Below, in pieces: positions 1-17,365 of a stretch of 26,574 nt of DNA; positions within the stretch are counted from its first letter, which is position 1, and every line of letters begins with the position of its first letter. The DNA lies in assembly GCA_030149205.1 (NCBI GenBank), contig JASBSB010000011.1, forward strand, positions 1 to 26,574, written 5' to 3'. The translations under genes were made by a program, and so were the position numbers. Below the pieces are notes generated by a model. That model saw only the letters and a program-made list of their open reading frames with translations. It ran no database searches and was not told the origin of the DNA. Source of the DNA: Candidatus Heimdallarchaeota archaeon. Lineage in GTDB: Archaea > Asgardarchaeota > Heimdallarchaeia > Heimdallarchaeales > Kariarchaeaceae.

Positions 1-515
1 CCAAACGAGGCATTAAACTGCCCTTTTTTGTTGCAATCGTGCTAGAACCCTTTTAGGGATTGAAACTTATTCTTTCCAAACGAGGCATTAAACTGCCCTT
101 TTTTGTTGCAATCGTGCTAGAACCCTTTTAGGGATTGAAACTTTATGTGTATATGAACTATTAAGATAGTTGTTAATCTGTTGCAATCGTGCTAGAACCC
201 TTTTAGGGATTGAAACTATCAACTTGCTTTGATATTTTTGGCTCTTGAAAGGAGGTTGCAATCGTGCTAGAACCCTTTTAGGGATTGAAACAACCAGAGA
301 TAACAAACAGAAAAGAAACAATAACTGCGTTGCAATCGTGCTAGAACCCTTTTAGGGATTGAAACTATTTTTCTTGTCCCTCGCTATTTCCTCGTTCATG
401 GTCGTTGTAATCGTGCTAGAACCCTTTTAGGGATTGAAACGATTTTGAGCCTCGAATTTTTCTGTATCCTCATCTAATGTTGCAATCGTGCTAGAACCCT
501 TTTAGGGATTGAAAC
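1..515 (+). CRISPR. CRISPR array (continues left of window); 37-bp repeat GTTGCAATCGTGCTAGAACCCTTTTAGGGATTGAAAC
   Basis: Repeats at 30-66, 105-141, 180-216, 255-291, 329-365, 404-440 (C5>T) and 479-515; spacers are 37-38 bp. A CCCT-TTT-AGGG hairpin is followed by ATTGAAAC, the typical 8-nt Cas6 5' handle, which implies + strand transcription with the leader outside the window to the left. Confidence 0.99.
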
Positions 516-533
516 ATTACCATATATGAGAAC

Positions 534-818
534 CTAAGTAGTAGATGTAATATATTTTCTTAATCCATCATAGTGTTCAAATTGGATCCAGGCATACTTC
601 TGTGATTTCCCCTTTGAAAACATTATTGAAATATCTGGTTCTTCTGGCCCGTAATGTGCTAAATTTTCTATTCCATCGTAATAATCTAAAAAAAGTGACA
701 GATCATCAATTATAACTTCTCTTGGTGGTTCAGACCAATTTAATTTCTCCCTTAAGTATTTTTTAGCAGCCTCGACAATCTGTTCTTCAGCATATTCTTC
801 AAGTAACCTATTTCTCAT
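534..818 (-). CDS. Small hypothetical protein, paralog A (about 94 aa, starts MRNRLLEEY)
   Basis: ORF track gives 534..842. The start is revised to ATG 818 because homology with 1980..2282 begins at MRNRLLE and a TATA-like box is centred about 26 nt upstream. Confidence 0.85.
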   Translation of the reverse strand: MRNRLLEEYAEEQIVEAAKKYLREKLNWSEPPREVIIDDLSLFLDYYDGIENLAHYGPEEPDISIMFSKGKSQKYAWIQFEHYDGLRKYITSTT

Positions 819-840
819 AAACATAATATTCTTCACACCC

Positions 841-860
841 AATATAATTGTTTCGCCCCC
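841..860 (-). promoter_or_regulatory. Archaeal BRE-TATA promoter of paralog A
   Basis: Minus strand reads GGGGGCGAAACAATTATATT; the last C of CGAAAC (850) is 32 nt from ATG 818. Confidence 0.65.
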
Positions 861-965
861 TGATTTTTTTGGTCAAAGAGTGTGGACCATAACCATATTT
901 TTGATCACTTTGAGAGTATACGAAGACTCATAACAGGTGTATATTTCAAAACTTCAAATAATTTG

Positions 966-1232
966 TCAAAGAAAGTTTAAAAGTAATTCTGGAGAATAAA
1001 TATTCACCACAGCAATATCTCCATTTTTTGTTTCACTGTACGCAAACTCCTCTCCATCAGGAAAAATGTATTGCTCCATCCCACGTCCGTTACTTTTTCC
1101 AAAAATCAAAAGAATATTTAGGTCTCCAATCCTAATTTCCTTCAACTCTGGGATGTCTCCGAAAGTCTCTCGAAGCATTTTTAACGCAGCAATACTTATC
1201 TGCCTGTTTTTCAATTTCAAGATACTTGACAC
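966..1232 (-). CDS. Small hypothetical protein, paralog B (88 aa, GTG start), distant member of the A family
   Basis: Gapless 13/34 identity to paralog A (QI..AA.K.LRE...E..I.DL...L), similar C-terminal hydrophobic pattern, same upstream motif. Confidence 0.75.
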   Translation of the reverse strand: MSSILKLKNRQISIAALKMLRETFGDIPELKEIRIGDLNILLIFGKSNGRGMEQYIFPDGEEFAYSETKNGDIAVVNIYSPELLLNFL

Positions 1233-1254
1233 AAATAAATTATCTTTAATCTGT

Positions 1255-1274
1255 CATATAACTGTTTCGACCAT
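1255..1274 (-). promoter_or_regulatory. Archaeal BRE-TATA promoter of paralog B
   Basis: Minus strand reads ATGGTCGAAACAGTTATATG; the last C of CGAAAC (1264) is 32 nt from GTG 1232. Confidence 0.65.
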
Positions 1275-1291
1275 CAGATATTTTTGTTTGA

Positions 1292-1564
1292 AAAACGGGA
1301 AGGAAACTTGCTACAAATACCATCAGAACATTAGTGAAAAAGTATGCTGCTAGTGCAGAGGTAAAGGCAAGCGGACACAAAACAGAGGTCACTCCTGTAA
1401 CTCTCCGTCACAGCTACGCCACTCATTTTACGGGCCTTGGAGTATCACCAATTGTCTTAGGTGAATTGATGGGTAATCCAACAGCAGTAAATAGGTACGC
1501 CCACCCAACTAAAGAGGCAAAACAAAGAGCTGCAAGGCTCATGGAGCCCACACAAAATGACTAA
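1292..1564 (+). pseudogene. C-terminal remnant of a tyrosine recombinase (XerC/D-like integrase)
   Basis: The frame of ORF 1334..1564 is open back to 1292: KTGRKLATNTIRTLVKKYA...VTPVTLRHSYATHF..LG...IVLGELMGN...NRYAH, matching box II (LRHS, LG[H], catalytic Y). An in-frame TGA lies at 1289-1291, no N-terminal half is present, and the HxxR His and GH His are substituted. Confidence 0.8.
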
Positions 1565-1997
1565 AAAAATTCGCAAAATAGGGGTTGGTTCTCAGAAAAA
1601 CCATATTTATAGAAAAATAATCGATAGAAAATTGAAACCTAAAAGAGATCAGCATCCAACAGTTGAATTCAGAATAAATATTGAATATCAAGGAGTCAAA
1701 AAAATTAAAGAGCTTGCTGAATTAGAACGAGTTACAATCAGTAGAAAAACACTTGAGAAACTATCAATGAAAAAAGGGCATTTATCTGTAAATGAAATAA
1801 GAGATGTACTTAAAGACCCAGACGGAATTTATTATAAACAAAATGGAAAGGAGGAAGTTTGGTTTTTTGTCAATGAGATGTCCAATACCAAGAAAGTGGT
1901 CGTAGTGATAGAACGAATGAATAAAAAACATAGGATAAGCACGGCTCACATATTAAAAAACAAATTTTTAAGCAAAAGATTAAGTGATTGGAATTGA
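1557..1997 (+). CDS. Putative BECR-fold (RelE/DUF4258/PBECR-like) nuclease or toxin, 146 aa
   Basis: Pattern ...KKGHLSVNEIRDVLKDPDGIYY...VWFFV...KKVVVVIE...RISTAHIL resembles the H-helix, P-x-x-hydrophobic, beta-meander and TA[HY] layout of BECR RNases. It overlaps the integrase remnant by 8 nt. By-eye call only. Confidence 0.5.
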   Translation: MTKKIRKIGVGSQKNHIYRKIIDRKLKPKRDQHPTVEFRINIEYQGVKKIKELAELERVTISRKTLEKLSMKKGHLSVNEIRDVLKDPDGIYYKQNGKEEVWFFVNEMSNTKKVVVVIERMNKKHRISTAHILKNKFLSKRLSDWN

Positions 1998-2282
1998 TTT
2001 GGGGGAAATAAACCTTTTAAGTCCATCATACCTGTCAAACTCAACCCAACAAAATCTTTTTTTGTTTCCTCTGACCCATACCAATTCAATCCCTTCCTCA
2101 TCTAATCCACCATCTACAACATCTTCTCCATCCCGTTCATAGATGAACAATGCAGAATCGGTGTCAATAAGGATATCAATGGGGATATCATTTAAATTTA
2201 GCTTTAATTTGAGGAATTTTTTAGCTGCTTCTATCACTTGATCCTCAGAGTAATTTTCCAATAAACGGTTCCTCATGATCAT
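1980..2282 (-). CDS. Small hypothetical protein, paralog A' (100 aa)
   Basis: 19/27 identity to paralog A at the N-terminus, plus a shared C-terminal W..F..YDGL..[YF]I motif. Confidence 0.85.
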   Translation of the reverse strand: MIMRNRLLENYSEDQVIEAAKKFLKLKLNLNDIPIDILIDTDSALFIYERDGEDVVDGGLDEEGIELVWVRGNKKRFCWVEFDRYDGLKRFISPKSIPIT

Positions 2283-2304
2283 AATTAATACTTCTATGTT
2301 CTCC

Positions 2305-2324
2305 TAATTAATTGTTTCGACCCT
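2305..2324 (-). promoter_or_regulatory. Archaeal BRE-TATA promoter of paralog A'
   Basis: Minus strand reads GAGGGTCGAAACAATTAATT; the last C of CGAAAC (2314) is 32 nt from ATG 2282. Confidence 0.65.
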
Positions 2325-2402
2325 CAATTATTTCTTAAGAATAGTATAGCTCATAAACACATTCTGTATTTTTGAGAGAGTATGTGCAGTATTCTACATT
2401 CC

Positions 2403-2513
2403 GTTTCAATATTGTTAGAACCCTTTTAGGGATCGAAGAAACTCGTAAAATTTCCCTTTATTCAATACTGTTCTTGGTTGGAACCAAGTTAGAACCTCTG
2501 CAAAAATTGATAC
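2403..2513 (+). CRISPR. Degenerate repeat-spacer-repeat mini-array
   Basis: 2403-2439 matches the array repeat at 30/37 with the hairpin intact; 2477-2513 matches at 24/37 with the hairpin broken. Both alignments are ungapped, and the copies are separated by a 37-bp spacer (2440-2476). Confidence 0.85.
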
Positions 2514-2535
2514 TCATAAGAATTGAAAAAATAAA

Positions 2536-3921
2536 TCAGAAGATATAGGAGGTGTAGTATATTTTACAGGTTGATCCTGGATATTTTATTCCCAGGGCAT
2601 ACTGGTGGCTTGAGTTTAAGATTTCTGTGGAGGTGATTTGAATCTGAGGTGGTGAGGACGGATTATATGGGAATTTAAACCACCTACCTGTCAAATGAAC
2701 ATCAACGTTATCTACAGTCAAGGAAATGTTGGTTAAGCACGCTAGCGGTAAAATTATATTGTTTTCAATCTGAATAGGGATGAGTGTATTAAATAACACA
2801 ACAGATAGTCCTGTAACATTCCAGGGAAAATCATAAAGTATTTCTCCGCTTAATACATTCTGGTTAAGTTTCTGGTTCACAAAATAATTTCCACTCTTTG
2901 CGGGGGAGTTAATGTAGTGTGTCTCATTAAATGCAATCAAATGCAGGCTGAGGCTGACTATTAGAAACAGGAGCAAGAAAAGTCTCAATCCAAAATATAT
3001 CCGGTTTAAGTTAAACTGAGGCCATCTTGATACTATCCCTCCTAAAATAATCCCTCCAGTTAACAAAAGGAGAATATTGAGGGGATAAGTAAGATTCTCT
3101 ATTCCTCGATTTATTGAGACTGTAAGATACACTGGCATGAGAAAGATTGTCACAGCACCCAAAACAAAGGTAAGAATTAGTTTTGTTTTAGCTCTGGTTG
3201 ATTTGTGGTTTAGACACCCTAACACAACAAGGTAAAAGCTGGCAAATATCAAAAATCCAAAGCCAAGGAGCTCAAAAACCGGTATAAATTTATGAGGTTC
3301 AAGTGGATAAAACCGTATAATAAGTATTCCTGTGTACACTAGCATAAAATCAATTATTAGGTCAACCAGAGACAATCTATGCACATACTTTTTCTTTAGC
3401 AATAAAAAGCTCTCACCAAAAATCACTGGGATCAGTATTAAAAATGAGATTAATGTAAGCTGCAAATAAATATTAGATAAGGGGATATACAACACAGTTG
3501 GGTAATCAAAGGTTAGAATAGCAAAAATTATAACAACATCTACCTCTAAAACAAAAATCCTAAAATAGTACATGGCTAACAAAATCAGTGCAAGACGGGA
3601 AAAATAGGGTGTGATCTTCCTGGGTTCATCTTTGTAATAAGATATAAGCACCCATAGCAGAAAAAGTAAAGTTGGTAAGAGAAGTATGCCAAAGTTGATT
3701 GATACCTGATCATTGACGATCTGGTAATCCTTGATAATGTATCCATTGATACGGTTTTCTTTGACATAGACAAGTCTGTATCTGAATCTCCAGAATATTG
3801 AGAAAATGATCAAGGAGACTAATGTGGAAATAAGACCTAACTGCTTTGATTTCTGTCTAATAAAACCTCTCTCCATGACCCCAAATAAAGAGCAGTTTTT
3901 TAAAGAAGGTGATATTTTCAC
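2536..3921 (-). CDS. Polytopic membrane protein (461 aa) with a C-terminal soluble domain
   Basis: Many hydrophobic segments; the C-terminal approx. 125 aa are hydrophilic and beta-rich with NxS/T sequons and two Cys. Confidence 0.8.
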   Translation of the reverse strand: MKISPSLKNCSLFGVMERGFIRQKSKQLGLISTLVSLIIFSIFWRFRYRLVYVKENRINGYIIKDYQIVNDQVSINFGILLLPTLLFLLWVLISYYKDEPRKITPYFSRLALILLAMYYFRIFVLEVDVVIIFAILTFDYPTVLYIPLSNIYLQLTLISFLILIPVIFGESFLLLKKKYVHRLSLVDLIIDFMLVYTGILIIRFYPLEPHKFIPVFELLGFGFLIFASFYLVVLGCLNHKSTRAKTKLILTFVLGAVTIFLMPVYLTVSINRGIENLTYPLNILLLLTGGIILGGIVSRWPQFNLNRIYFGLRLFLLLFLIVSLSLHLIAFNETHYINSPAKSGNYFVNQKLNQNVLSGEILYDFPWNVTGLSVVLFNTLIPIQIENNIILPLACLTNISLTVDNVDVHLTGRWFKFPYNPSSPPQIQITSTEILNSSHQYALGIKYPGSTCKIYYTSYIF

Positions 3922-4099: not shown

Positions 4100-4534
4100 A
4101 TGAGCGACAAGGCAGAACGACCAAAAATTTATTCTCTTGAGCCCGTCTTACAGGTTAACAATTTACCAGAGACCCTGAGGTATTATGAGGAGACCCTCTG
4201 CTTCCACATCGACTGGGTCTGGCCAGATGATGACAAGCGAGACACAGCTGATCATGCTTCAGTCTCTTTGGGGCAGCAAGAGGGTGAGGAAGAGGAGCAT
4301 TCACACCATCACTCACATATACAGCTGAGCCAGGCAGATAAGACCCCTGTGGCAAACTCTGGCTGGCTGTACTTTAGGGTTGAGTCAGACATAGATGAAC
4401 TTTATGAGTTATTTAAAAGGGGAGGAGCAAGCATAAGCTCTGAGATAAACAGCTATCCCTGGGGTATGAGAGAATTTGATATTCGTGAGAACAATGGTCA
4501 TGTCTTCCGCTTTGGAAAGCCTGTGGAACAATAG
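4100..4534 (+). CDS. VOC/glyoxalase (bleomycin-resistance-like) family protein
   Basis: PVLQVNNLPETLRYYEETLCF at the N-terminus and LYFRVESDIDELYE...YPWGMREFDIRENNGHVFRFG at the C-terminus; acidic/His-rich insertion EEEEHSHHHSH. Confidence 0.9.
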   Translation: MSDKAERPKIYSLEPVLQVNNLPETLRYYEETLCFHIDWVWPDDDKRDTADHASVSLGQQEGEEEEHSHHHSHIQLSQADKTPVANSGWLYFRVESDIDELYELFKRGGASISSEINSYPWGMREFDIRENNGHVFRFGKPVEQ

Positions 4535-5589: not shown

Positions 5590-6414
5590 TTACACCAATG
5601 TAATAAATTGAGATTGAAAGAGATGGTTAATAATATCAAATCTTCCTAAACCCACGGTTCTTCCTCTCCCCACCCCTGTAAAAAATCCTAATAAAAATAG
5701 GCTATTTATGAAATCAACATATTTTTCATGTACTCCATAGGTTACTTGGCCTACCCAGCCTTGGTGTATTATCTTTCTATTTATTCTAACCGTGCTCAAC
5801 CTTCCTTTAGCTTTTTCAATCCAAATTTTATTTTGAAGATCGATCACTTCTAAAGAATTCTCGTTAGTCCATTTTTTCCATAATGAAATTAGGTTGGTTA
5901 TTAAATTCGTAGGTTCTGGCCATTTGAAGTACTGCTTCCCTTGAGTAAAAGACAAAGGTGATTTAAAGTTTAATTGAAAGATTGAGTTTTCAATTATTGA
6001 GTCAGATAGATCGAATGATTTCATATTAATTTGATATGGTGAGAACTTTAGACCATAGGCACTTACAATTTGAATAGATTGTAAAAACATAGGAAACAAC
6101 CTAATTAATTCTAAGTTTGAGGTTATTACATCGAAAAATACCATTTCACCTTTCACAAGTGATTTTGATTTTAAATAATCTATTGGGGAGTTTTTACAGG
6201 TATTGCATTTCCATCTGTAAATTTGTGATATTGATAAATCTAATACTCCTCTTGACATTCGAAAAGAATCAAAAAGGCTTTTGCTTTTCTCTCTCAACAG
6301 GTCAAAAAATAACTTGTTTGCTATTTGACCAGAAAAATATGGAGTTCTTTTGGAACTCTGAGCAATTAGAAACACCCTGAAAAATTTTATATTTATGAAA
6401 TAGCTTCTACTCAT
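5590..6414 (-). CDS. cas6: CRISPR-associated endoribonuclease Cas6
   Basis: C-terminal G-rich loop GFFTGVGRGRTVGLGRF; FKSPLSF..G....WPEP..L..NL...W motif; ATGA overlap with cas3. Confidence 0.9.
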   Translation of the reverse strand: MSRSYFINIKFFRVFLIAQSSKRTPYFSGQIANKLFFDLLREKSKSLFDSFRMSRGVLDLSISQIYRWKCNTCKNSPIDYLKSKSLVKGEMVFFDVITSNLELIRLFPMFLQSIQIVSAYGLKFSPYQINMKSFDLSDSIIENSIFQLNFKSPLSFTQGKQYFKWPEPTNLITNLISLWKKWTNENSLEVIDLQNKIWIEKAKGRLSTVRINRKIIHQGWVGQVTYGVHEKYVDFINSLFLLGFFTGVGRGRTVGLGRFDIINHLFQSQFITLV

Positions 6415-9035
6415 GTTGCATCAAATTTAGGATTAAACCCTCCTAAAGGGGAATACTGGGTGAATTCGCTTTCCTTAACCAAGTATAACTCTACACCAGG
6501 GTATTTTAATTTATTATAGTTGGTGATTTGATTCAATAACTTGCTTGAAATTCCTATCATATATAAATTCAATAATTTCAATGAAGATTTTTTGGTTATA
6601 TCAAATTTATTGAGTAAATTATCGGGTAAAATTGCAAGACTTTTGTCGTAAGTCTCTTCAATTAATTTAAAATCTGAAAAGAGCTTACCCAAATTCGAGG
6701 TATCTAGTAAATCTGTTAACTCTGAAGTAATTTTCCTCATTTTTATTTTTTCATAAAATTTAGGTATCAATGACCTGAGTTTAATTTCATCCAAGTTATT
6801 TTCCTTTAATAAGAGCTCGTTTGTTATTTCTAAGGTGACTAAATCATATAAGTTCGCATATGGTTTGCCTTCATCATTCACAAGGTTGAATAAAGTTATA
6901 ACTCCTCTATCATTTCGATTATTTCTGTTACATCTTCCTGCAACTTGAATTATTGAATCTAATGGTGCCATATCTCTGTAAACTCTAGAAAAATCTAAAT
7001 CAATTCCTGCTTCAATCACCTGTGTTGTCACTAAAATCACTGGTTTGTTCTTGGCTAAAAGGTTTTCAACTTCCTGTATAGTGTTCTTTCGATCTATAGG
7101 TCTTACCCAGGTTGAGAGTAGAAAAGTTGAATAATTTTTGAATTCAGAATCAACAAAATCATAAACATCTCTGCAAGACTTTTTTGTATTTAAAACAATT
7201 AAAATTTGGTTGTTTTTATTCACCTCAATATTGTTTTTGAAGTATTCTATTAAATCTTCCATACCTATTTCACTGAGGTCTTCAAGGAAATTTATCTCAT
7301 ATCTATTGATTTGATCTAATATATCCCTTGGTAAATTTAATGTTGGTCTCACAATTGATTTCACTGAATTTACCAAGGGGCGAGGATTGGTGGCAGAACC
7401 AATAATAAAGTCAATATTCAGATATTCGATCATAAAATTAATTGTTTTTGATAATATTTTCCAATATTTTGGAGGCAAAGATTGAACCTCATCTAAAATA
7501 ATTATCGAACCAATTAATCTATGAAATCTTAAAATTGCCTTTTTCTTGCCTGAAAAAATTAGATTCAAGAAAGATACAAATGTTGTAACAATGAATTGGT
7601 TGTGCCATAATCTTGTTGAATAAGATGCTTTTCCAACAATTATTTCATCTACACTTTCAACAAAATTCTCTCCTTTAACAATAAATTGAGGTAGATCAGA
7701 GAAGCTATGATGGATAGTTAAAAGCTCCTTTTTGCCCAATTTATTTAGACTCAGGATTTCATCAACTACATTTCCAACCTGATCAGTTATAGAAATAAAG
7801 GGTAAAGCATAAATTATTCTTCGAAATTTTTTGGTTTGAATAGGATGTTTGTTTGCTAATCTGACAGCTAAATTTATCATGGCATATGTTTTTGCAGAAC
7901 CTGTTGGTGCTTCAATAATGTAGGCTGATGGTTTATCTGATAAATCATTAGAATCTAACACATTGAACAAAATATTTCTTAACCTGTTTAACTGACTAAG
8001 AGTTGTATTTCCGTTTGGTTTGAATTTTAAATTTATTGTTTTTTTAACAGTATCTAAAGGAATTTTTCCAGTGTACGACCAATCAAATTCATCGGAATGG
8101 GAATCTGTGTTTTGGATAAATGTTCTGGCATCCCACTCATCTAGGTCACATAGCATAGAATGAAGAGTTAGATAAAAAGGTAAAAATGATGATAAATTTT
8201 TTGCATTATTCCAATCATCCGTAATATCCTCTATTAAGTCTTCAAACTCATCTGATACTATTTCTTTCTTTATTGGTTTCAAATAATTATCCAAATTACT
8301 AACTTTATATCTGACTATTTCTCCAAGTTGATCTAATGATTTTTTAATAATGTCTTTTCGATCTCCAGTGAATTTTTCACTAAAATCACAAGAAATCAAA
8401 ATCAAATCGTCTATATATCCAATTTGTTTATTTTGTCCTGGAATTCCTATTTCAAACTTTTTGCAAAATACATGTGTCTTCATTAGTGATATTGTTGAAA
8501 GTGTATCTACCTTTGCCTCTTTTAAATATTCTAACAAATTATGTTTTATTAGAGGAGAATGATGGCTGGCAATGGAATAAGGGATAAGAATCTTGAATAA
8601 TGAGATAAAGTTATCTGTAAGGTCTCCTAACGAGTTCTTTATTTCATTTTTTTCAATAGCAAAATAATTTTCTAACAGCAAATATGAGAAAATAGAGCTA
8701 GTTTTTGTATGATAACTTAGTGGGTTTATTGTGGCTTTAACCTTATTTTGTCTTATTTTGTATTGAAACACTGGTGAAATTTTTCCAAAATCATGACAAA
8801 CCACTAAAATTTTCATAAGGTCTTCAACAATATATTCTGATATTTTTAATTTTGTTGAATCTGGGGCTTCTCCAAAACTTCTGAGAGAATCTTTTGCAAG
8901 TTCAAAAAACGGTAATCTAAATTTTAAATCAAATAATTTTTTTCTTAAGTTCGATAAATGATGTTCTAGTGGTTGCCCGGGTCTAGCTAATAACCGATTA
9001 TAAGATGAAAATTTTTCTTCAATTGATTTCGTCAT
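6411..9035 (-). CDS. cas3: Cas3 HD nuclease-helicase
   Basis: LEHHL, CHDFGK, ASHH and LCDLD (HD domain); APTGSAKT, LDEVQ, GSAT, TQVIEAGIDLDF and QVAGRCNR (helicase motifs). Confidence 0.97.
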   Translation of the reverse strand: MTKSIEEKFSSYNRLLARPGQPLEHHLSNLRKKLFDLKFRLPFFELAKDSLRSFGEAPDSTKLKISEYIVEDLMKILVVCHDFGKISPVFQYKIRQNKVKATINPLSYHTKTSSIFSYLLLENYFAIEKNEIKNSLGDLTDNFISLFKILIPYSIASHHSPLIKHNLLEYLKEAKVDTLSTISLMKTHVFCKKFEIGIPGQNKQIGYIDDLILISCDFSEKFTGDRKDIIKKSLDQLGEIVRYKVSNLDNYLKPIKKEIVSDEFEDLIEDITDDWNNAKNLSSFLPFYLTLHSMLCDLDEWDARTFIQNTDSHSDEFDWSYTGKIPLDTVKKTINLKFKPNGNTTLSQLNRLRNILFNVLDSNDLSDKPSAYIIEAPTGSAKTYAMINLAVRLANKHPIQTKKFRRIIYALPFISITDQVGNVVDEILSLNKLGKKELLTIHHSFSDLPQFIVKGENFVESVDEIIVGKASYSTRLWHNQFIVTTFVSFLNLIFSGKKKAILRFHRLIGSIIILDEVQSLPPKYWKILSKTINFMIEYLNIDFIIGSATNPRPLVNSVKSIVRPTLNLPRDILDQINRYEINFLEDLSEIGMEDLIEYFKNNIEVNKNNQILIVLNTKKSCRDVYDFVDSEFKNYSTFLLSTWVRPIDRKNTIQEVENLLAKNKPVILVTTQVIEAGIDLDFSRVYRDMAPLDSIIQVAGRCNRNNRNDRGVITLFNLVNDEGKPYANLYDLVTLEITNELLLKENNLDEIKLRSLIPKFYEKIKMRKITSELTDLLDTSNLGKLFSDFKLIEETYDKSLAILPDNLLNKFDITKKSSLKLLNLYMIGISSKLLNQITNYNKLKYPGVELYLVKESEFTQYSPLGGFNPKFDAT

Positions 9036-9045
9036 ACCTTGCTTC

Positions 9046-9900
9046 CTAAAGAAATGTAATTGTTTTATTTAACTTTTTAATTTCTACCCCTTTTTCTGAT
9101 TCTAGTTTAGCCTTAAATTCATCCTCTGGTCTGACCAAAAATACAGATTCAAGTCTTTTTGCTATGATATTCCATAATGACAATTTAGTCTTATCATCTG
9201 CTTTTTTCATTGCCATAGGTATATTCAACAAGGTTGGTGTGCTTAAGAGAGAAAGAGGTATTTCCTTCATAAATTCTGAGTCAATTGCAGAGTAAGGGAC
9301 AATTGTATTTACTTTATAAATTATATCTGTACTGATTTTTGTCCCCTCAAACTCTCCTACATATTCTACCCTCGCTAATAAGTTTGCATGACCTAAATAT
9401 GGTGGATAATAATACTTTTTATTTTCTAACCTATCCTTGAGCTTCGTATATATTTCTAAATTTTCGGTGTGAATATACAACTGATAACTTGCATCTTCAA
9501 TCAGATCGAGTTTTGTTGGGGCATTCATGCCTCTGCTATATTTAGCTCCTCTGTACCTACGTGCAAAATCCTTGGCATTTAATTCAATTAACTCTGCACC
9601 AAATGGGTCTTCAGGTATCAAAATTTTGGAATTTTGGATTGTGATGGTTTCCTTAACTCTAATATAATTAACTTTAAGAGAATTTCTCTTAATCGGATTT
9701 AAAATTTCCACGGCAATATTTAGTGAGCTTAACGGATTTTTTACATCCCAATATTGATTTCTAGGCTCTCCTAAAATCGCACCTAATAACCCAAGTACTG
9801 CGGTACGTGGTGGAAAAGGGTAACTCAAGTTTTCTCTTGTTGTTTCGGGGATTCTAAAATGAGCGAAATCTCCTTCTAACTTTACAACCAAAACCTTCAT
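9046..9900 (-). CDS. cas5: Cas5, type I-B (Cas5h)
   Basis: GDFAHFRIPET...SYPFPPRTAVLGLLGAILG; YYPPYLGHA. Confidence 0.95.
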   Translation of the reverse strand: MKVLVVKLEGDFAHFRIPETTRENLSYPFPPRTAVLGLLGAILGEPRNQYWDVKNPLSSLNIAVEILNPIKRNSLKVNYIRVKETITIQNSKILIPEDPFGAELIELNAKDFARRYRGAKYSRGMNAPTKLDLIEDASYQLYIHTENLEIYTKLKDRLENKKYYYPPYLGHANLLARVEYVGEFEGTKISTDIIYKVNTIVPYSAIDSEFMKEIPLSLLSTPTLLNIPMAMKKADDKTKLSLWNIIAKRLESVFLVRPEDEFKAKLESEKGVEIKKLNKTITFL

Positions 9901-9909
9901 ATGCTATCC

Positions 9910-10845
9910 TCATATATCTTCTAAAGCAAAATCACTTAAGAAATCTTTCAAGCTGTTACTTGATTCTTTTCCATCTGTAAATGTTAATCCTCTATCCTCT
10001 TTAATCTCGATGAAATCAATTTGATCTGAGAATTTTTTTATCCTTTCGAGAAATCCACTGATATTTACTCTAGCATCTTCTGATCCTTTTAAATTTAACT
10101 CATTTTCAAGAACAAACCCTTTATCTAAATCTCCTATTTGGAAATCATTTTCTTTTGAAGCTACAGAAAGTAGTAATCTTGGAAGATGGTTAGTTTTACT
10201 ACGAGTGTTAATTCTTTTGGTACCATTCCATAAGCCATCATAGACATATTTTAGGTCGTCCTCAGTAAATCCAACCTCTTTAGCATTATGTTCACAAGCA
10301 ATCCCATGAAACTTAATTAAAGAGTAATCAAGAACATGGAATTCTCCAATTGACCCCTGTCCCTTTCCTTCCTCGGAGGCAATAGTTGAAGAAATGGTAA
10401 AAGAATTGATATTTGGTTTGTTCATTGATCTTGCAATTGAAAATTGAACTGGGCCTGTTAAGGCGACATTAGCATCTTTAACAGTACCAACAACACCAAA
10501 AGACCTGACATCAATAAATTTTTCAGGCAATGATTTTCGGATAAGTTCACGAGTATCTCCTTTCACCACTCCTATTTCTAACTCTTGTTTAATTAATTCT
10601 TTCATGGAGAGGACATTTCCTTTGTTTTCTCCTTCATCAGATTTAACAACTCTTCGAATGAGCACCTTGTTGTTTTCAGTTTCCCTTGTAAGCCAATAAT
10701 CTCTTATTGTGCGTTTTAACCTTAGATCAGTGACTATATTGTAATCATTCTCATCCATTCTAGGTCTGTTTTCATCATCGGGATCTCCATTAGGATTAGA
10801 GTCCCGTACATCATAAATAAATACTATTTCTCTTCTTTGTTTCAT
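9910..10845 (-). CDS. cas7: Cas7, type I-B (Csh2)
   Basis: SNPNGDPDDENRPRMD, VTDLRLKRTIRDY, FIDVRSFG, TGPVQFS and RSKTNHLPRLLL. Confidence 0.96.
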   Translation of the reverse strand: MKQRREIVFIYDVRDSNPNGDPDDENRPRMDENDYNIVTDLRLKRTIRDYWLTRETENNKVLIRRVVKSDEGENKGNVLSMKELIKQELEIGVVKGDTRELIRKSLPEKFIDVRSFGVVGTVKDANVALTGPVQFSIARSMNKPNINSFTISSTIASEEGKGQGSIGEFHVLDYSLIKFHGIACEHNAKEVGFTEDDLKYVYDGLWNGTKRINTRSKTNHLPRLLLSVASKENDFQIGDLDKGFVLENELNLKGSEDARVNISGFLERIKKFSDQIDFIEIKEDRGLTFTDGKESSNSLKDFLSDFALEDI

Positions 10846-11354
10846 ATTTGTTCCTCCATATCTTCCGTTTCAGAAGGTTCATTTTCTTCTTCTTCAGATG
10901 GATTTAGTTGTGCCAATGAGCTATCAAATCCCATTTGGAATGAAATACCAAGATCATATTGATTCTCTTTAAACTCATTGATATCTTTTAATAAGTCAGA
11001 AATTCTGTTTCTAAGATCAGATTTCATAACGTACGTACTTTTTTCTTTAGAAGCAATTTTTTGTAATACTGAGTTACAATTGTTAATCATAATTTTGAGT
11101 TTCGTTTCATCTATTCGTCTAGTTAAGTTAGGAAGGTTCTTTATTAGACTAGATGTTTTAAGCATTTTTTTCTGAAGAAAAGAACTGATAGAATAATATC
11201 TTCCAACAAGATAGCTTATCTGTCTTTCTGGCTTATTATTGAAATATTCTGTCTTAAAGATTTCATCAAGAAATCTGTTATCCTCTATTAATTTCTGTTT
11301 GAAATTTTCTTTTTTATTGATTTTTTCTAGATTTTCCTCTGACATATTGTTCAC
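10842..11354 (-). CDS. cas11: Stand-alone Cas11b small subunit (equivalent to the Cas8b C-terminal domain); true start may be ATG 11345
   Basis: Helical 170-aa protein between cas8b and cas7. SYLVGRYYSISSFLQKK and ISFQMGF match the FLxG..L...Q and F..G motifs of the Csh1/TM1802 C-terminus. GTGA overlap with cas8b. Confidence 0.75.
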   Translation of the reverse strand: MNNMSEENLEKINKKENFKQKLIEDNRFLDEIFKTEYFNNKPERQISYLVGRYYSISSFLQKKMLKTSSLIKNLPNLTRRIDETKLKIMINNCNSVLQKIASKEKSTYVMKSDLRNRISDLLKDINEFKENQYDLGISFQMGFDSSLAQLNPSEEEENEPSETEDMEEQI

Positions 11355-12880
11355 TCCCTAAATAAATTTAACTGGCACATTAGTTCATATAAAACTAAAA
11401 ATGTGTTGAGCATTCTACGATATTCATACTTTTTGATGAGAGTTTGTTTTTTCAAACCACCGTTATAAACTAAAAACGGATCTTTTAGGTTTGAAATTGC
11501 ATTTTTTGAGAATTCCCTATTTGAGACCTTTTTACCTGTAAGTAATGAATTTCGAATTAGATCTGCTTCTTTTATTGAAAAAAGAGAATATAGATCTTTA
11601 AATTCAAATCTATACACATTTTTATTTAATAAAAATTCTTTCTGATTGAACTTATTTTCAATAGATTCTAGAACTTCTAAAAATTTTTGTAGTTTATTGA
11701 CATTTACAAAAGTTGTATCCATAAAGACAATTTTTGTATTGCTAACTCCTGTTCGCTCATTTGTATAAAATAAGTCTAAATACGAAATTCCTCTTTTCGC
11801 GAATTCTTTTAATAAGGTACGTTCATCAATTTTTGAGTTGGTAGTTATATCTTCCTTGTTTTTCTTAGTTGTTTTCACAATTTTATTTTTAGCAGACCTT
11901 ACTATTTTTTTATTAACTCTTTCTAAATTTTCCTTTAAATTTTCAGCTTCATTTCTTTTGGTTGTTGTTTGTGATTGAATGTTCTTTAATTGAATAATTC
12001 TCGAAATAATTTCATTTAATTTTTGCAGATCAAAGACTAAAGGAAGTAGGATGTGATTTACAAATAAATTATTTCTGGAGTTTATTGGCTTAATATAACT
12101 TGGGAACGACAATTCGTTAACCATCAGATTTAAACCTTGTTGAATATCATTTTGGCAGTCGTAACACAAATTGAGTTGATGTGTTTTTTTTGCGTCAAAT
12201 CCCATTACAAAATTGTTTAAATCAAGGGAAAAGAATTCAAAAACAGCTTTGTTAATTTTTGAAACAGGTATGAGGTTAACAAACTTTCCACAGGCATAGC
12301 AAATTCCATTTATTGAATCTTTATCCTTAGATACTTTCGCTGACGATAAGTATACTTTTATGAATTCATCAATTTCTCCAGGATACTTAAAACTTTCACC
12401 ATCATGCACTTTGAAAACTAATAGTGTTGGACATTTACTCTTATTTACTTTGTTTTTTTTCTTGTCAAAAAAATTATCCTTAATCTTTAGCTTTATTTCA
12501 TCTTCGACACTATTTTTATTTTGTTCTAGCCATTCGATTAGTTGAGGATAAATTACTAACTCATCCTTATTTTCACTTTCCAACACAGAAGCTGGGAATT
12601 TTGCAAAATTGATTATTCTTCCTGTTTTGTTTAGTTCATCAGGTTTTATGTTTAAAACAGGGGATAAGTTACTGCTATTTCCCCCTTGGATTCCCCTTAG
12701 GTAGGTAATTTCTTTATTTTCGCTATATTCCTCAATATTTACTTGAAAGGTATTTTTGTTTGGGTCGACTTCAATGACAAACAAATGATCTTTCTTGTAT
12801 TTACTTTGTTCTTTTATTAATGAAACTAAAATATCATCCGAATTGATTTCACCGATTTTTTTGACAAGTGATAATAACAA
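11351..12880 (-). CDS. cas8b: Cas8b large subunit (Csh1/TM1802-like) lacking the C-terminal Cas11 part
   Basis: First gene of the cas7/cas5 operon; CYACG and LCYDCQ zinc-site motifs, FFSLD, HILLPLV; TTG start with upstream GGGAG. Confidence 0.85.
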   Translation of the reverse strand: MLLSLVKKIGEINSDDILVSLIKEQSKYKKDHLFVIEVDPNKNTFQVNIEEYSENKEITYLRGIQGGNSSNLSPVLNIKPDELNKTGRIINFAKFPASVLESENKDELVIYPQLIEWLEQNKNSVEDEIKLKIKDNFFDKKKNKVNKSKCPTLLVFKVHDGESFKYPGEIDEFIKVYLSSAKVSKDKDSINGICYACGKFVNLIPVSKINKAVFEFFSLDLNNFVMGFDAKKTHQLNLCYDCQNDIQQGLNLMVNELSFPSYIKPINSRNNLFVNHILLPLVFDLQKLNEIISRIIQLKNIQSQTTTKRNEAENLKENLERVNKKIVRSAKNKIVKTTKKNKEDITTNSKIDERTLLKEFAKRGISYLDLFYTNERTGVSNTKIVFMDTTFVNVNKLQKFLEVLESIENKFNQKEFLLNKNVYRFEFKDLYSLFSIKEADLIRNSLLTGKKVSNREFSKNAISNLKDPFLVYNGGLKKQTLIKKYEYRRMLNTFLVLYELMCQLNLFRE

Positions 12881-13647: not shown

Positions 13648-14868
13648 CTATTCCTTTACCCACCTCTGGATCTCAGCCTCCAGGTTACTCAGATCTTTTC
13701 TTCCGAACACCTTGACAGATCTATCCACTAGGTAATCTCTGACCTCGTTCTCCAATGCACTTTTGTTATCCGAGAGACATACCAACCCAAAGTATGTCTT
13801 CCAGCCAGCAATCTGTGTGGAGCGGATCATGACCTCAAATATCTTTTTCTTCAGCTCAGATTTTCCACCTCTCTTTGAATCTGAGACTGTGGAGACAGAA
13901 ACCACATACACCCGGTTTTTAACCAAAAACACCATGTCTAGCTCAAATTCAGGATCTTTGCTAGAGATGTTGGTTTTGAAGTCATCAATCACTCCTAACC
14001 TTGTAAGGTTTGAAAGTGCATCTGCTACGCGACTCTCGAGCCAGAACCCATCAAACCATTCTACAAGCTTCTTAATCCTCCTGAACTGAAGCTGTTTGGT
14101 TAGATCTGCGAGTCTGACCTTTTGGTTATTTGGATGTATCAGTTGCTTTAGCTCAGGGATATCAGCAAATGAAATTTCAATTCCATGTAACTCGGTCTCA
14201 GGTTTAACTTTCCTGTTTTTTTTCTTGTAAGCCTTTCTCAACTGTTTAGATTTGAAATTGAGCCACCTCTTATCATTCTCTTGTTTGCTTAGCAACTTGA
14301 TTAATGCATCGACCACCTTTCTTTGCTCATTTTTCAAAGGGACAGTTGGATCAAACTTTGTGTCCTGATGAAGTGATATAACCTCAGAAACTGTGAATGG
14401 AAGATTGATCTCCTCTTCATGAGTTTCAAGGCTTGGTACCTTAGTGATGATGAGACTCCAGGGTTTTCCCCGTATGTAAGAGATGACAAAATCTGCGTTT
14501 ATTCTCTGTAGATAAAAGAGTGTTGCCATTAACATTGGCTTGGTACCACCGGTGGAATCAAAATGGACATAAGGTTTTTGTGGGTGATTAAATACCGGAT
14601 CAAGTGACATTTTGAGTTCTTTCAGAATCTCCCCTTGATCAAATGGTGGGACTTCAATTCCAAGGATCTGTTGTTCCTTTCCCCTCTGATCTCTCTTCTC
14701 CTGAAAATTTCTTTTCCATTGTAATATCCTTGAAAAGATCGGCTCATTAGCCTTGGTGTACAGAATAAAGACATGGGGGGTGTCAGAGAAGAGTTTGATA
14801 ACTGTGACAGGAACAATTGGATTGGATCCTAAAAGGGTGATGAGTACACTTGGTTTCTTAAGTGTCAA
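13648..14868 (-). CDS. CARF + DUF1887 (PD-(D/E)xK-like) nuclease, Card1/Can2-like
   Basis: N-terminal CARF motifs LITLLGSNP and FDSTGGTKPM; C-terminal FDGFWLE...ELDMVF....VYVVSVST...KKKIFE...RSTQIAG...GLVC. Confidence 0.8.
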   Translation of the reverse strand: MTLKKPSVLITLLGSNPIVPVTVIKLFSDTPHVFILYTKANEPIFSRILQWKRNFQEKRDQRGKEQQILGIEVPPFDQGEILKELKMSLDPVFNHPQKPYVHFDSTGGTKPMLMATLFYLQRINADFVISYIRGKPWSLIITKVPSLETHEEEINLPFTVSEVISLHQDTKFDPTVPLKNEQRKVVDALIKLLSKQENDKRWLNFKSKQLRKAYKKKNRKVKPETELHGIEISFADIPELKQLIHPNNQKVRLADLTKQLQFRRIKKLVEWFDGFWLESRVADALSNLTRLGVIDDFKTNISSKDPEFELDMVFLVKNRVYVVSVSTVSDSKRGGKSELKKKIFEVMIRSTQIAGWKTYFGLVCLSDNKSALENEVRDYLVDRSVKVFGRKDLSNLEAEIQRWVKE

Positions 14869-14961
14869 TTGTAAATGATTATTCGCTGTATGGTTATATA
14901 GTTGAGGACTTCTAGATAGTTATTTCAATATTCCTTAGATGAAACCTCTCAAATACCTGTG

Positions 14962-15621
14962 TTAATTTTCCATTAGAGCAACCAGAACCTTTCCTGTATC
15001 TGTCAGAGAGACGAGCCTTTCCTTTCCCTGATAGTCAGATTCAATCAGGTCCTGGTTCTCAAATTCTTTGATATATCTTGTCATTGATTGAACAGTTCTA
15101 AGCCCAGTTTCCTTTTTGAGTAGGGAGAGGGAAATGGGTCTGTTAATCTCTCCCAATGTTTTAATAATTTTCAGGCGGGTGTCTCTGAAATCTCTGGTAG
15201 ACACTCGGGGCATAGGTACCCAAATAAGCTCTCCTATACCATCGTCCTCACGAAGTTTTTTGAGATAAAAAACAGGACTTGCGGTCATATATCCAACGAG
15301 AAGAAGTGCTGAGGTCATTATTTTTGTCCCTCCAGTCATATTTAGTGTGATCTTCAGCTTGGGGTCACTCTGGTATTTTTTACGAACCTTCTTGATTCCT
15401 TCAATCATGTTAAGAAGGCAGTTCATAAGATCAAATTTATCTATAATATGATTGTAGACCTTAATACGTAGTGGGTCATTCTCATAAAACTTCTTTATGG
15501 ATGCCAGTTCTGGAGAGTCATCAGAATCAGTGAACAGATGGATTTCATCCATCGGAACATGCCTAAGGGCATTGAGCACCACATCTGGTGACTTCCCTAG
15601 ACTGGCAAATTGTACTCTCAT
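14962..15621 (-). CDS. csa3: Csa3-like CARF-wHTH transcriptional regulator
   Basis: CARF motifs FASLG and LNMTGGTKIM; C-terminal winged helix SLSLLKKETG...QSMTRYIKEFENQDLIE...GKERLVSLTDTG. Confidence 0.85.
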   Translation of the reverse strand: MRVQFASLGKSPDVVLNALRHVPMDEIHLFTDSDDSPELASIKKFYENDPLRIKVYNHIIDKFDLMNCLLNMIEGIKKVRKKYQSDPKLKITLNMTGGTKIMTSALLLVGYMTASPVFYLKKLREDDGIGELIWVPMPRVSTRDFRDTRLKIIKTLGEINRPISLSLLKKETGLRTVQSMTRYIKEFENQDLIESDYQGKERLVSLTDTGKVLVALMEN

Positions 15622-15642
15622 AAGTAAATAAATCCAGTAAGG

Positions 15643-15705
15643 TTATTTAATTTGTTGTTTATTATAAACTGATTTTGTTTAATGTCTGCATAATGTATTT
15701 AATAT
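15643..15705. promoter_or_regulatory. Divergent csa3/viperin promoter region with central palindrome GTTTAT-T-ATAAAC (15657-15669)
   Basis: TATA-like TTAAATAA (minus strand, 15650-15643) about 25 nt from csa3 ATG 15621; TTTAATAT (plus strand, 15698-15705) about 25 nt from viperin ATG 15726; a 6-bp inverted repeat lies between them. Confidence 0.5.
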
Positions 15706-15725
15706 ATTGCTGTCAGTTTATTGTT

Positions 15726-16649: not shown

Positions 16650-17365
16650 ATGTCAAACTTTCGAAAATTGTTATCAAGTATGGTGGAAGTCAGTTGTATG
16701 ATGAATCAGGAACAATTCTGCCAGAAAGATTTAAACTTCTTGCAGAACTTATTATAAGGCTTTGTGACACAGGCATCTCTACCTATGTGGTTTTAGGCGG
16801 GGGGAAACCAACGAGGGATATTGTTCAAAAATTCTCCCGATCCCTCGTAAATTCTAAGTTTGGACTTAATGCAACACAACTTGACCATATTTCCATTGAG
16901 GTGACAAGGATTCATTCTCAGTTGTTAAGATTCATGTTATCAGGTAAAATGGAAACAAGGTTTGTAACTAGGTATGAGGAATTATTTGATGAGGTTCTTC
17001 CCTCTACAGTTACAGTGGCTGGAGGTCTCTTTCCTGGTCAATCAACTAATGGAACAGCTGCGTTGGTGTCAGAAGCAGTAGAAGCTGATCTGTTAGTCAA
17101 TTTTTTTGGATTTGACAATATTCACTCAGAAGACCCAACCACAAATAGGAAAGGTAAAACTCTGACATCACTGTCATATGAAGACCTCAACAAATTAATT
17201 AGTGGGTTTAAGCAAGAGCCAGGCCATTATGAGCTGTTTGATCTCTTGGCATTGAACTACGTAAAGAGGTCAAAGATTCCGGTTTTATTTCTTAATGGGA
17301 ATAATCCTCTTAAGCTTAAAGAATATCTCTCTGGAACGAAATTGGGGACGTTGGTTAAAGCATGA
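16643..17365 (+). CDS. Archaeal-type uridylate kinase (PyrH, amino-acid-kinase fold) homolog, diverged
   Basis: KIVIKYGGS, VVLGGGK.TR, VAGGLFPGQST...AAL..E...ADLL, EDP and final GTLV; overlaps viperin by 7 nt. Confidence 0.88.
   Translation: MVDVKLSKIVIKYGGSQLYDESGTILPERFKLLAELIIRLCDTGISTYVVLGGGKPTRDIVQKFSRSLVNSKFGLNATQLDHISIEVTRIHSQLLRFMLSGKMETRFVTRYEELFDEVLPSTVTVAGGLFPGQSTNGTAALVSEAVEADLLVNFFGFDNIHSEDPTTNRKGKTLTSLSYEDLNKLISGFKQEPGHYELFDLLALNYVKRSKIPVLFLNGNNPLKLKEYLSGTKLGTLVKA

Follow-up and report, generated by a model that had tools for sequence, protein, structure and literature searches.

The window, a 26,574-nt stretch of DNA from Candidatus Heimdallarchaeota archaeon, opens with a CRISPR array followed by three small minus-strand genes, A, B and A′, which raises the question of whether these genes are part of the CRISPR system or have some other function. 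The first-pass annotation had described them as diverged paralogs and had offered three options: immunity or antitoxin proteins, anti-defence (Acr-like) proteins of a mobile element, or a new CRISPR-associated family. All three ORFs were present on the minus strand at the positions given in that annotation (Table 1).

Table 1. Features at the left end of the window (positions are those of the window).
Feature	Position	Strand	Description
CRISPR array	1-515	+	Seven 37-nt repeats (30-66 to 479-515); runs off contig, continues on contig C8
A	534-818	-	94 aa, acidic, pI 4.9; family member without toxin partner
Block upstream of A	819-945	-	Non-coding, conserved; BRE/TATA-like motif 842-858
Inverted repeat AGAGTA-N7-ACTC	~913-931	-	Inside block upstream of A
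B	966-1232	-	88 aa, GTG start; divergent subfamily, without toxin partner
Motif before B, GGTCGAAACAGTTATAT	1256-1272	-	Sited exactly where integrase homology starts
Tyrosine integrase remnant	1268-1552	+	Residues 196-290 of 290-aa relative; in-frame stop near 1289
T	1557-1997	+	33-aa Lys/Arg-rich tail, then predicted BECR-fold RNase domain, PBECR2/3 type
A′	1980-2282	-	100 aa (98 aa from second ATG); convergent with T, 18-nt overlap
LELIWGK* remnant	1988-2011	+	Out-of-frame piece of T conserved C-terminus; homologs end ..LIWK
Block upstream of A′	2283-2411	-	Conserved; motif 2309-2322, inverted repeat ~2377-2395; homologous module ends here
Two degenerate CRISPR repeats	2402-2438, 2477-2513	+	30/37 and ~22/37 matches, respectively

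The proposed relationship among the three genes held, with A and A′ close and B distant. BLASTP aligned A with A′ at 39 identities over 95 residues (41%, E 3e-22), spanning the N-terminal MRNRLLE..Y.E.Q..EAAKK and C-terminal W..F..YDGL..[YF]I blocks. The ungapped 13/34 match between A and B was reproduced (E 4e-4 as a single comparison), and direct pairwise comparison of B with A′ gave no match. Failure of B in profile-profile alignment had been named beforehand as an outcome that would speak against its membership; hhalign instead matched B to a 7-member A profile over 69 columns (probability 87.7%, E 3.4e-6). In addition, an exhaustive profile search of 1.84 billion proteins built from A-type members only recovered protein P0017 (E 1.2e-5), which shares 44% identity with B across 87 residues (E 9e-23). 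Because of the hhalign match, the recovery of P0017 and an upstream DNA motif common to the three genes, we conclude from sequence comparison that B is a distant member of the A family.

This family is rare and undescribed. The 1.84 billion proteins yielded only 14 real cluster representatives, and a word-indexed homolog search returned A itself only when A was the query, and 7 unnamed proteins when the family alignment was used. Querying for related loci with A and A′ together identified one Heimdallarchaeota contig and none among viral contigs. As the first-pass annotation had suspected, the family is unrecognized, with no match in Pfam, NCBIfam, PHROGs or PADLOC. Since homologs differ by a dN of only 0.25-0.51 despite saturated synonymous sites, the genes look real.

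The position of the genes relative to the array was examined from the repeats. Another 27 copies of the array repeat, on the opposite strand, open contig C8, which puts the leader side left of the window. The two degenerate repeats thus place the island 516-2401 inside the trailer end of the array, 3 kb from cas6-cas3-cas5-cas7-cas8b. The integrase remnant within this island is 64% identical to the intact integrase of a related locus, L013 (tblastn, E 1e-36); the Pfam Phage_integrase model matched the remnant weakly and the intact gene at E 3.3e-21. Positions 1367-2401 are collinear with the integrase-T-A module of another locus, L055 (65.7% over 1062 nt). We also considered a split integrase of the SSV type, with attP inside the integrase gene, and dropped it because the N-terminal half was absent from the other end of the island. 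A single DNA sequencing run contains the stretch, and its contig agrees exactly with positions 488-3000 and has no alternative joint, so that no empty site was seen. No RNA run containing the stretch was listed among the sequencing runs.

Between the integrase remnant and A′ lies T, previously called nuclease-like, a description that can now be narrowed to a BECR-fold domain of the PBECR2/3 type on the basis of sub-cutoff profile matches and predicted shape. T matched PBECR3 (PF18812) with an E of 7.5e-5 and 23.1 bits, below the Pfam gathering cutoff of 30, and four of five T members matched PBECR3 below cutoff. Matches to PBECR2 (PF18810; 21.7 bits against a cutoff of 27.1), DUF4258 (E 0.0016-0.039) and BrnT were weaker, all of them below cutoff. 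In Atlas shape comparisons T resembled PBECR2/3 clusters (TM 0.66-0.74 over 110-114 residues) whose members are fusions with MuF, portal or minor capsid proteins. BECR toxins also headed its PDB fold list at Z 5.0-6.8 (7vd7_A, 6.8; BrnT, 6.0; CdiA-CT, 5.9; colicin D, 5.8; colicin E5, 5.6), scores of 5-7 being in a range that the search tool terms middling. The conserved residues of T are K64, H75, H125 and T129. Iyer et al. 2017 (PMC5512222) gives a His within the N-terminal helix together with a C-terminal Thr as the PBECR signature, and T carries both. A 1-nt frameshift removes the last strand of the T of the window, and an independent Logan contig was identical at the frameshift site. A weak match on contig C12 in the searches of this genome for T and DUF2283 was a CN-hydrolase-like gene. 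Because the genome has a single T gene, A and B are partnerless.

The neighborhoods of other family members were then compared. Of 15 readable loci, spanning 15-60% protein identity, 11 had T or a T remnant as the convergent, 3′-overlapping partner of the family gene, which was encoded directly beside the putative C-terminal toxin domain. The overlap was 6-39 nt and the genes were convergent in every paired locus, an arrangement at odds with co-transcription in one operon. The loci lacking T were those of A and B in the window, together with L023 and L025. In Heimdall-group Asgard genomes T is free-standing and directly behind a tyrosine integrase, the intact integrase-T-A order being seen in L013, whereas in tailed-virus contigs a MuF head protein carries it as its C-terminal domain. 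L024 encodes a fusion of Phage_Mu_F (E 6.6e-23), HTH and T, with an XkdF-type protease encoded on the far side of the family gene, and in L053 a Peptidase_S78 gene adjoins the family gene of a MuF-T pair. The co-directional 93-aa neighbor of a distant member, P0018, was not T-like (hhalign probability 3%). The family gene was intact beside a decayed T in the window, L014 and L054, and orphan family copies exist, including A and B near the T locus of the window itself. Immunity genes usually persist in this way after decay of the toxin.

This tally bears directly on the two CRISPR-related options. If the family were a Cas accessory family working with the adjoining array, as its location inside the array of the window and the position of the L014 gene, 1.2 kb away from an array whose repeat is related, might suggest, arrays should recur beside it. 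Of 13 loci, only the window and L014 had an array in the available flank; the eleven others, which instead showed integrases or virus head genes, had neither an array nor a cas gene in 0.5-10 kb of flank, and no cas gene was found among the called neighbors of loci other than these two. Moreover, the L014 gene is on the leader side of its array, not the trailer side, with a housekeeping PP-loop gene in between, and the island of the window is collinear with the integrase module of L055, which has an unrelated context. The tally therefore largely refutes this option, and we regard it as extremely improbable. It is also very unlikely that the proteins are Acr-like, acting against the type I-B or type III CRISPR-Cas system of the host. 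Such a function would fit small genes on mobile elements that encode acidic proteins from promoters of their own, have diversified orphan copies and, in the window, lie inside an array and close to cas genes. Arguing against it, T is the sole recurrent neighbor while cas genes and arrays are not (2/13 loci), no Aca-type HTH gene adjoins in the window, and the AcrID1 (6exp) hits of the fold search were insignificant (E 0.28). Nor did any of the 74 spacers from the three arrays of the genome match the island or related loci beyond chance matches of 16-17 nt. No positive evidence for the Acr-like option emerged. Since the nearly constant neighbor is T and not CRISPR, the family members are likely immunity proteins rather than CRISPR parts.

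A structural model of A (AF2; pLDDT 88, pTM 0.81) predicts that the family fold consists of one helix, a five-stranded sheet and a short C-terminal helix. Searches for a solved relative of this fold gave nothing significant (Foldseek best E 0.1; VIA-align best Z 3.5), so the designation inhibitor rests on context and modeling. Sequence-profile and fold searches of the PDB likewise revealed no homology to solved immunity proteins. The PDB sequence-profile search did match a nucleolin RRM over GK.KKYAWIEFE (E 1.2e-7), and Pfam RRM_1 scored E 0.04-0.06 against the family. As the AF2 topology, a helix followed by five strands, and the fold searches disagree with an RRM identity, we treated this match as a short-motif resemblance. 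The best protein-atlas feature match, the HI1450 dsDNA-mimic family (0.80), was under the level that the tool considers meaningful.

The partners carry opposite charge, with family pI values mostly 4.2-5.7 and a T pI of 10.2. We modeled the complex of the intact L013 pair. The ipSAE was 0.63 (runs 0.55, 0.63 and 0.66) against 0.00 for the best control; 58 of 80 solved complexes clear the pass mark used, as do 2 of 110 mismatched pairs. The partners had pLDDT values of at least 84, and at least 81% of contacts were common between runs. The predicted interface on T comprises residues 34, 37-41, 92-95 and 97-100, corresponding to the conserved K, GH, R-L-A-T and Y, such that the small acidic protein is placed over the conserved His/Lys/Thr face. 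The model supports binding of the L013 T by its neighboring family protein.

These results favor the immunity or antitoxin option, through both the T pairing in 11 of 15 loci and a complex model that passes its controls, and count against a new CRISPR-associated family. We consider it probable that T and A′ are a toxin-immunity pair within a degraded integrase element at the trailer end of the array and that A and B are orphan immunity cassettes. According to this model, A, A′ and B would be protein inhibitors of T, a PBECR-type BECR-fold endoRNase. The sheet and a variable acidic loop of the inhibitor would cover the conserved Lys/His/His-Arg/Thr face of T and thereby block RNA access. The inhibitor gene would oppose T, with overlapping 3′ ends and a promoter of its own, allowing the inhibitor to be made independently of T. 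The int′-T-A′ segment (1268-2411) would be a decaying module in which the integrase is truncated and the last strand of T is lost; A′ would be the cognate partner of T, and A and B would be cassettes that derive from related modules, either left behind by them or captured from them. The entire 1.9-kb island sits in the trailer end of the array. We infer the RNase activity and toxicity of T and its neutralization by A-family proteins; homology, pairing, fold class and the predicted interface were computed.

The family proteins could alternatively be virion-assembly helpers, chaperones or packaging adaptors that keep a MuF-borne RNase folded and silent until capsid loading, with chromosomal copies as leftovers. 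In L024 and L053 the gene has the MuF-T gene on one side and the prohead protease gene on the other, and a predicted tight complex suits a chaperone as well as an inhibitor. Nevertheless, the pair is kept in integrase modules without capsid genes (L012, L013, L015, L055 and the window), and the gene, which has its own promoter, runs antisense to the late operon. We judge this explanation quite unlikely; it also overlaps with the immunity reading, since binding over the active-site face would imply inhibition in any case.

The DNA upstream of the family genes was compared as well. The first-pass annotation had assigned each gene its own promoter, and a BRE/TATA-like motif, GG[GT]CGAAACA[AG]TTA, does occur 37-38 nt before all three start codons. 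The 3.3-Mb genome contains only three copies of this motif, exactly at A, B and A′. The block upstream of A is kept in L012, L013, L018, L054 and L055 despite synonymous saturation; the immunity reading by itself does not account for this strong conservation. Neither the island nor related loci gave a relevant result in Rfam and tRNA scans.

A further explanation is that the family members are DNA-binding regulators of the mobile element, either excision activators or anti-activators like FseA, a DUF2283 protein, or autorepressors, with T as a passenger. Their binding site would be the conserved inverted repeat that precedes their own genes, and the 135-nt block with AGAGTA-N7-TACTCT is indeed conserved beyond synonymous saturation. 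An integrase adjoins the family gene in 5 loci. In addition, the nearest Atlas shapes to the A model are archaeal clusters, one of them with 69% DUF2283 members (TM 0.66, rmsd 2.4 over 79 residues, predicted on both sides); two unnamed archaeal clusters scored similarly. The DUF2283 proteins FseA and QseM regulate excision of integrative and conjugative elements (PMC4755241). Sequence gave no tie to DUF2283: the Pfam model (PF10049) did not match any of 7 members up to E 1, and hhalign of a 17-member family alignment against 14 same-phylum DUF2283 proteins returned a probability of ~1%. No DUF2283 gene was found in the genome of the window. The proteins are acidic, no RHH, HTH, AbrB or Phd domain was detected in the family by Pfam, and the model has no known DNA-binding motif. 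Virus-borne members, whose head modules have neither an integrase nor the upstream motif, still keep T as partner. We therefore regard a purely regulatory role as unlikely, and it is in any event compatible with an antitoxin function; many antitoxins also autoregulate.

The T/A arrangement shares features with several known systems. PBECR RNase domains occur widely in the head and polyvalent proteins of phages, and a small gene beside the toxin end is where an immunity gene is expected. MuF toxin-immunity pairs are known (for example, PMC12226406), and L024 resembles MuF polymorphic toxins and phage polyvalent proteins with PBECR domains (PMC5512222, PMC12226406) in that its T domain is C-terminal on a Phage_Mu_F protein in a head module. 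Unlike these, the contigs here come from archaeal or Asgard-associated settings, the Heimdall T stands alone behind an integrase and has a basic N-terminal tail, and the putative immunity gene converges on and overlaps the toxin gene instead of following it in the same direction, and belongs to no described immunity family. In the available part of Iyer et al. 2017 (PMC5512222), no inhibitor family is named for PBECR1-5; for the related MuF-fused DUF6883/BECR-Tox3 domains, DUF4926 is the partner proposed in a 2026 preprint. The putative type II pair of DUF4258, a BECR toxin, and DUF2283 is echoed by the weak DUF4258 matches of T and the DUF2283-rich cluster near the A model in shape. DUF2283 genes in the same phylum adjoin or fuse to genes starting FT.HA..RM..R, which we take to be DUF4258-like. 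Our family differs in having an extra N-terminal helix, about 25 more residues, no sequence relation to DUF2283 and a convergent order instead of an operon. The tRNases colicin D, colicin E5 and CdiA-CT, with ImmD, ImmE5 and CdiI, share their toxin fold class with T, a small acidic inhibitor predicted over the active-site face and an accumulation of orphan immunity genes near the toxin locus. They are delivered as bacteriocins or by contact-dependent secretion, here by a virion or mobile element, and the family has no homology to any solved immunity protein. Like BrnT-BrnA and RelE-type systems, the locus pairs a BECR RNase with an adjoining small partner on mobile DNA and the toxin decays while the partner persists, but the A-family partner lacks a detectable RHH, HTH or Phd-like domain and the genes are convergent with separate promoters.

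If the A family is the cognate inhibitor of a PBECR2/3-type domain, it would provide a handle for expressing and assaying such toxins, extend MuF-type toxin-immunity to archaeal viruses and Heimdall-group Asgard archaea, and enlarge the range of RNase inhibitors by a fold for which no relative has been solved. The adjacency of A, A′ and B to the array would then have arisen because a mobile element landed there, a warning that genes in or beside arrays are not automatically CRISPR-associated.

Cleavage of crRNA or pre-crRNA by PBECR domains was floated by Iyer et al. 2017 (PMC5512222). One could accordingly imagine an integrase-T-A element that homes to CRISPR arrays, with the RNase cutting pre-crRNA or crRNA and the A family as off-switch. 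In that scenario, which we consider highly improbable, the genome-unique 17-nt motif and the 135-nt block would be a recombination site that stacks immunity cassettes.

The constant neighbor of genes of the A, B and A' family was not CRISPR but T, the gene for a BECR-fold RNase-like protein, in the 15 loci with enough flanking sequence to be read. A convergent T-domain gene, its 3′ end overlapping that of the family gene by 6-39 nt, was found in nine of these (window A' and the homologous loci L012, L013, L015, L016, L019, L024, L053 and L055 from other genomes, metagenomes or virus contigs). A broken T occupied the same place in L014 and L054, and T was absent from four loci (window A, window B, L023 and L025). 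Immunity or antitoxin proteins and a new CRISPR-associated family were among the explanations offered by the first-pass annotation. The former gained support from the intact or broken T partner in 11 of 15 loci, whereas the latter was not borne out, an array being within reach in only 2 of 13 loci. One of these is the window; in the other, L014, the family gene and the array are separated by a housekeeping gene, on the leader side. Inhibition of a PBECR-type RNase is the most likely role of the family proteins.

In L024, T is C-terminal in a protein that also carries a Phage_Mu_F domain (E 6.6e-23) and an HTH, and an XkdF-type protease gene lies on the other side of the family gene; in L053 that other neighbor is a Peptidase_S78 prohead protease gene. 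In both of these virus head modules the family gene is antisense, with the MuF gene to one side and the protease gene to the other. In viruses, the family protein would act as the immunity protein for a virion-borne MuF-T effector. Immediately upstream of T, a whole or remnant integrase gene was found in the window, L012, L013, L014 and L055, and in such integrase-borne modules the family protein would be the antitoxin-like part of an addiction or defense pair.

The assignment of T to the BECR class was examined with profiles and models. Sub-threshold matches to PBECR3 were present in four of five T proteins, some of which also matched PBECR2, DUF4258 or BrnT. The AF2 model of the intact L013 T domain (pLDDT 76) matched ESM-Atlas clusters annotated as PBECR2/PBECR3, in which the domain is joined to a MuF, portal or minor capsid protein, with TM 0.66-0.74 over 110-114 residues. 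When compared against all PDB representatives, its first ten places were taken by BECR toxins, including a Salmonella TA toxin (Z 6.8), BrnT (6.0), CdiA-CT (5.9), colicin D (5.8), colicin E5 (5.6) and RelE (4.9); the tool rates each of these Z values as middling, and the weight lies in the consistency of the list. The conserved T residues K64, H75, H125 and T129 are consistent with the PBECR configuration described by Iyer et al. (PMC5512222), a His in the N-terminal helix with a C-terminal Thr/Ser, and with the Lys-His plus beta4-His arrangement of colicin-like BECR RNases (bioRxiv 10.64898/2026.08.28.747851). Iyer et al. also raise the possibility that some PBECR domains attack crRNA.

Our model predicted that the family protein would contact T directly. 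The complex of the intact L013 pair, modeled with family alignments, scored 0.63 (0.55, 0.63 and 0.66 in three runs), the best of three controls scoring 0.00; partner pLDDT was at least 84 and at least 81% of contacts were common to the runs. For calibration, 58 of 80 solved complexes attained the score mark, as did 2 of 110 mismatched pairs; these figures are rough here, where own alignments were used. We found no solved complex of this type of pair, so it is unlikely that the model passed by reproducing memorised structures, though this is less certain for the T side. Confident modeled contacts on the T domain comprised residues 28-41, 63-67, 78-85, 92-100 and 103-107, among them the conserved Lys, the Gly-His that opens the helix and, past the second His, the strand Arg-Leu-Ala-Thr-Ala-Tyr; those on the family protein fell in the variable acidic loop 48-56 and neighboring strands. 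The model lends support to a putative binding of the family protein over the active-site face of T. The opposite isoelectric points, mostly 4.2-5.7 for family members versus 10.2 for T, agree with the predicted complex.

The strongest rival explanation is that the family is a DUF2283/FseA-like regulator, a reading that would also suit an antitoxin with an autoregulatory function. The confident AF2 model of A (pLDDT 88, pTM 0.81) shows a helix over residues 11-26 and five strands, with a second, short helix at the C-terminus, and resembled no solved structure (Foldseek best E 0.1; VIA-align best Z 3.5). Its closest predicted shapes were three small archaeal clusters (TM 0.61-0.66), in one of which 69% of members carry DUF2283, and this modeled likeness is suggestive. 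In this phylum, DUF2283 genes also adjoin genes for proteins beginning FT.HA..RM..R, or are fused with them; we take these to be DUF4258-like. Despite the shape likeness, the family proved unrelated to DUF2283 in sequence, and filing the family under DUF2283 was therefore rejected. As a separate observation, L032, a DUF2283 locus (contig C22 of genome G105, 1444-1911), holds a single 155-aa ORF with a DUF4258-like N-terminal half and a DUF2283 C-terminal half that looks like a toxin-antitoxin fusion, and at several other loci of this phylum a DUF2283 gene directly adjoins a 77-89-aa DUF4258-like gene; the DUF4258 assignments in all of these loci are presumptive, made by eye.

The proposed kinship of the three paralogs held up. 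A and A' shared 41% identity along their whole length (E 3e-22), and B aligned with A at 13 identities over 34 residues (E 4e-4), with no match to A' in a single comparison. A profile of seven A-type sequences aligned with B over 69 columns (hhalign probability 87.7%, E 3.4e-6) and, when all 1.84 billion cluster representatives were read, recovered the B-like protein P0017 at E 1.2e-5, which is 44% identical to B (E 9e-23). These results, together with the presence of the family's upstream DNA motif before B, place B in the family. Only 14 real representatives were found in this exhaustive search, so the family is rare. As the first-pass annotation had stated, it is unrecognised: no member matched Pfam, NCBIfam, PHROG or PADLOC or was named in its source. 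Between homologs dN was 0.25-0.51 with synonymous sites saturated, as would be expected of real genes under constraint.

The earlier claim that each gene has its own promoter proved stronger than stated, as GG[GT]CGAAACA[AG]TTA lies 37-38 nt before all three start codons and has no other copy in the 3.3-Mb genome. It reads as a putative BRE followed by a TATA box. The motif is nearly invariant upstream of homologs in L012-L015, L018, L054 and L055, within a non-coding block of ~135 nt that includes the inverted repeat AGAGTA-N7-TACTCT, ends in TCTATTTAWAT and is more conserved than the adjoining coding sequence. This block may be a promoter only, an operator or a recombination site. Given an own promoter and antisense placement, the inhibitor would be made independently of T.

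Features of the window
Feature	Position	Strand	Remarks
CRISPR array	1-515		seven perfect 37-nt repeats
A	534-818	minus	
B	966-1232	minus	
Tyrosine integrase remnant	1268-1552	plus	last 95 codons, in-frame stop; 64% identity to residues 196-290 of intact 290-aa relative
ORF T	1557-1997	plus	
A'	1980-2282	minus	
Degenerate CRISPR repeats	2402-2438 and 2477-2513		two
cas operon, type I-B-like	5590-12880		cas6, cas3, cas5, cas7, small subunit, cas8b
CARF-domain gene	14962-15621		Cas_APE2256 and Card1-CARF matches
Further large ORFs	13648-22910		past cas operon

The window is an entire contig of 26.6 kb. Contig C8 of the same genome starts with 27 more copies of the 37-nt repeat on the opposite strand, indicating that the array extends leftward with its leader on the left, and the degenerate repeats beyond A' indicate that the 1.9 kb of 516-2401 lies within the array's trailer end. 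None of the genome's 74 spacers matched this island. The integrase remnant, T and A' are collinear with L055 (65.7% identity over 1062 nt), the homology ending at 2401, right at a degenerate repeat; judged from their sequences, the three form one module. This module is decaying. The first 195 codons of the integrase are gone, as is the last strand of T: window T terminates ..KRLSDWN* and its homologs ..LIWK, and LELIWGK* can be read at 1988-2011, one frame over, which points to a 1-nt frameshift. An independent assembly of the only run holding this stretch showed no difference at that site. T, which carries a 33-residue Lys/Arg-rich tail, is the only T gene in the genome, and A and B have no partner T. 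We read A and B as probable orphan immunity cassettes, which would be kept for possible protection from T variants that related viruses or elements bring in.

A retains its full upstream block (819-945), and that of B is cut at about 1268-1272, exactly at the start of the integrase remnant, which begins inside the B motif (..TGTTTCGACCATCAG.., 1256-1275). The integrase truncation point is thus the edge of a cassette; either microhomology or site-specific recombination may be responsible.

Several further observations were made. L014 (contig C29 of genome G043; 4-422, 1663-2856), the second near-array locus, has a related 37-nt repeat, a frameshifted T, integrase fragments only (..SKGHRSRLVEI..) and an intact family gene. 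In L013, also from G043, a 25-nt direct repeat (AGGATTTGAGTGACAGGTGA..) at 4352-4376 and 6928-6952 bounds ~2.5 kb adjoining the family gene's upstream block; a 20-nt copy occurs in L012 and a similar stretch in L018, and the repeats may be the ends of a larger element. T proteins begin with a Lys/Arg-rich motif, M[GA][KR]K[IV]RK[IL]G.. (window 1557-1655; L012 190-290; L013 7790-7890), also N-terminal in a 264-aa protein of unknown function (L012 1171-1398; L013 6106-6900), whose gene is divergent from the family gene in both G043 copies and frameshifted in L012; the two kinds of protein may share a tail for targeting or for binding nucleic acid. Array regions span 1-1981 and 9225-12399 of C8, the second with 43 variant repeats, and a solitary near-repeat lies on contig C4 (553951-553987). 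The window's first partial spacer (1-29) matches the end of the following spacer (67-104) exactly, which reflects either duplication of a repeat-spacer unit or an artefact of assembly where the contig ends.
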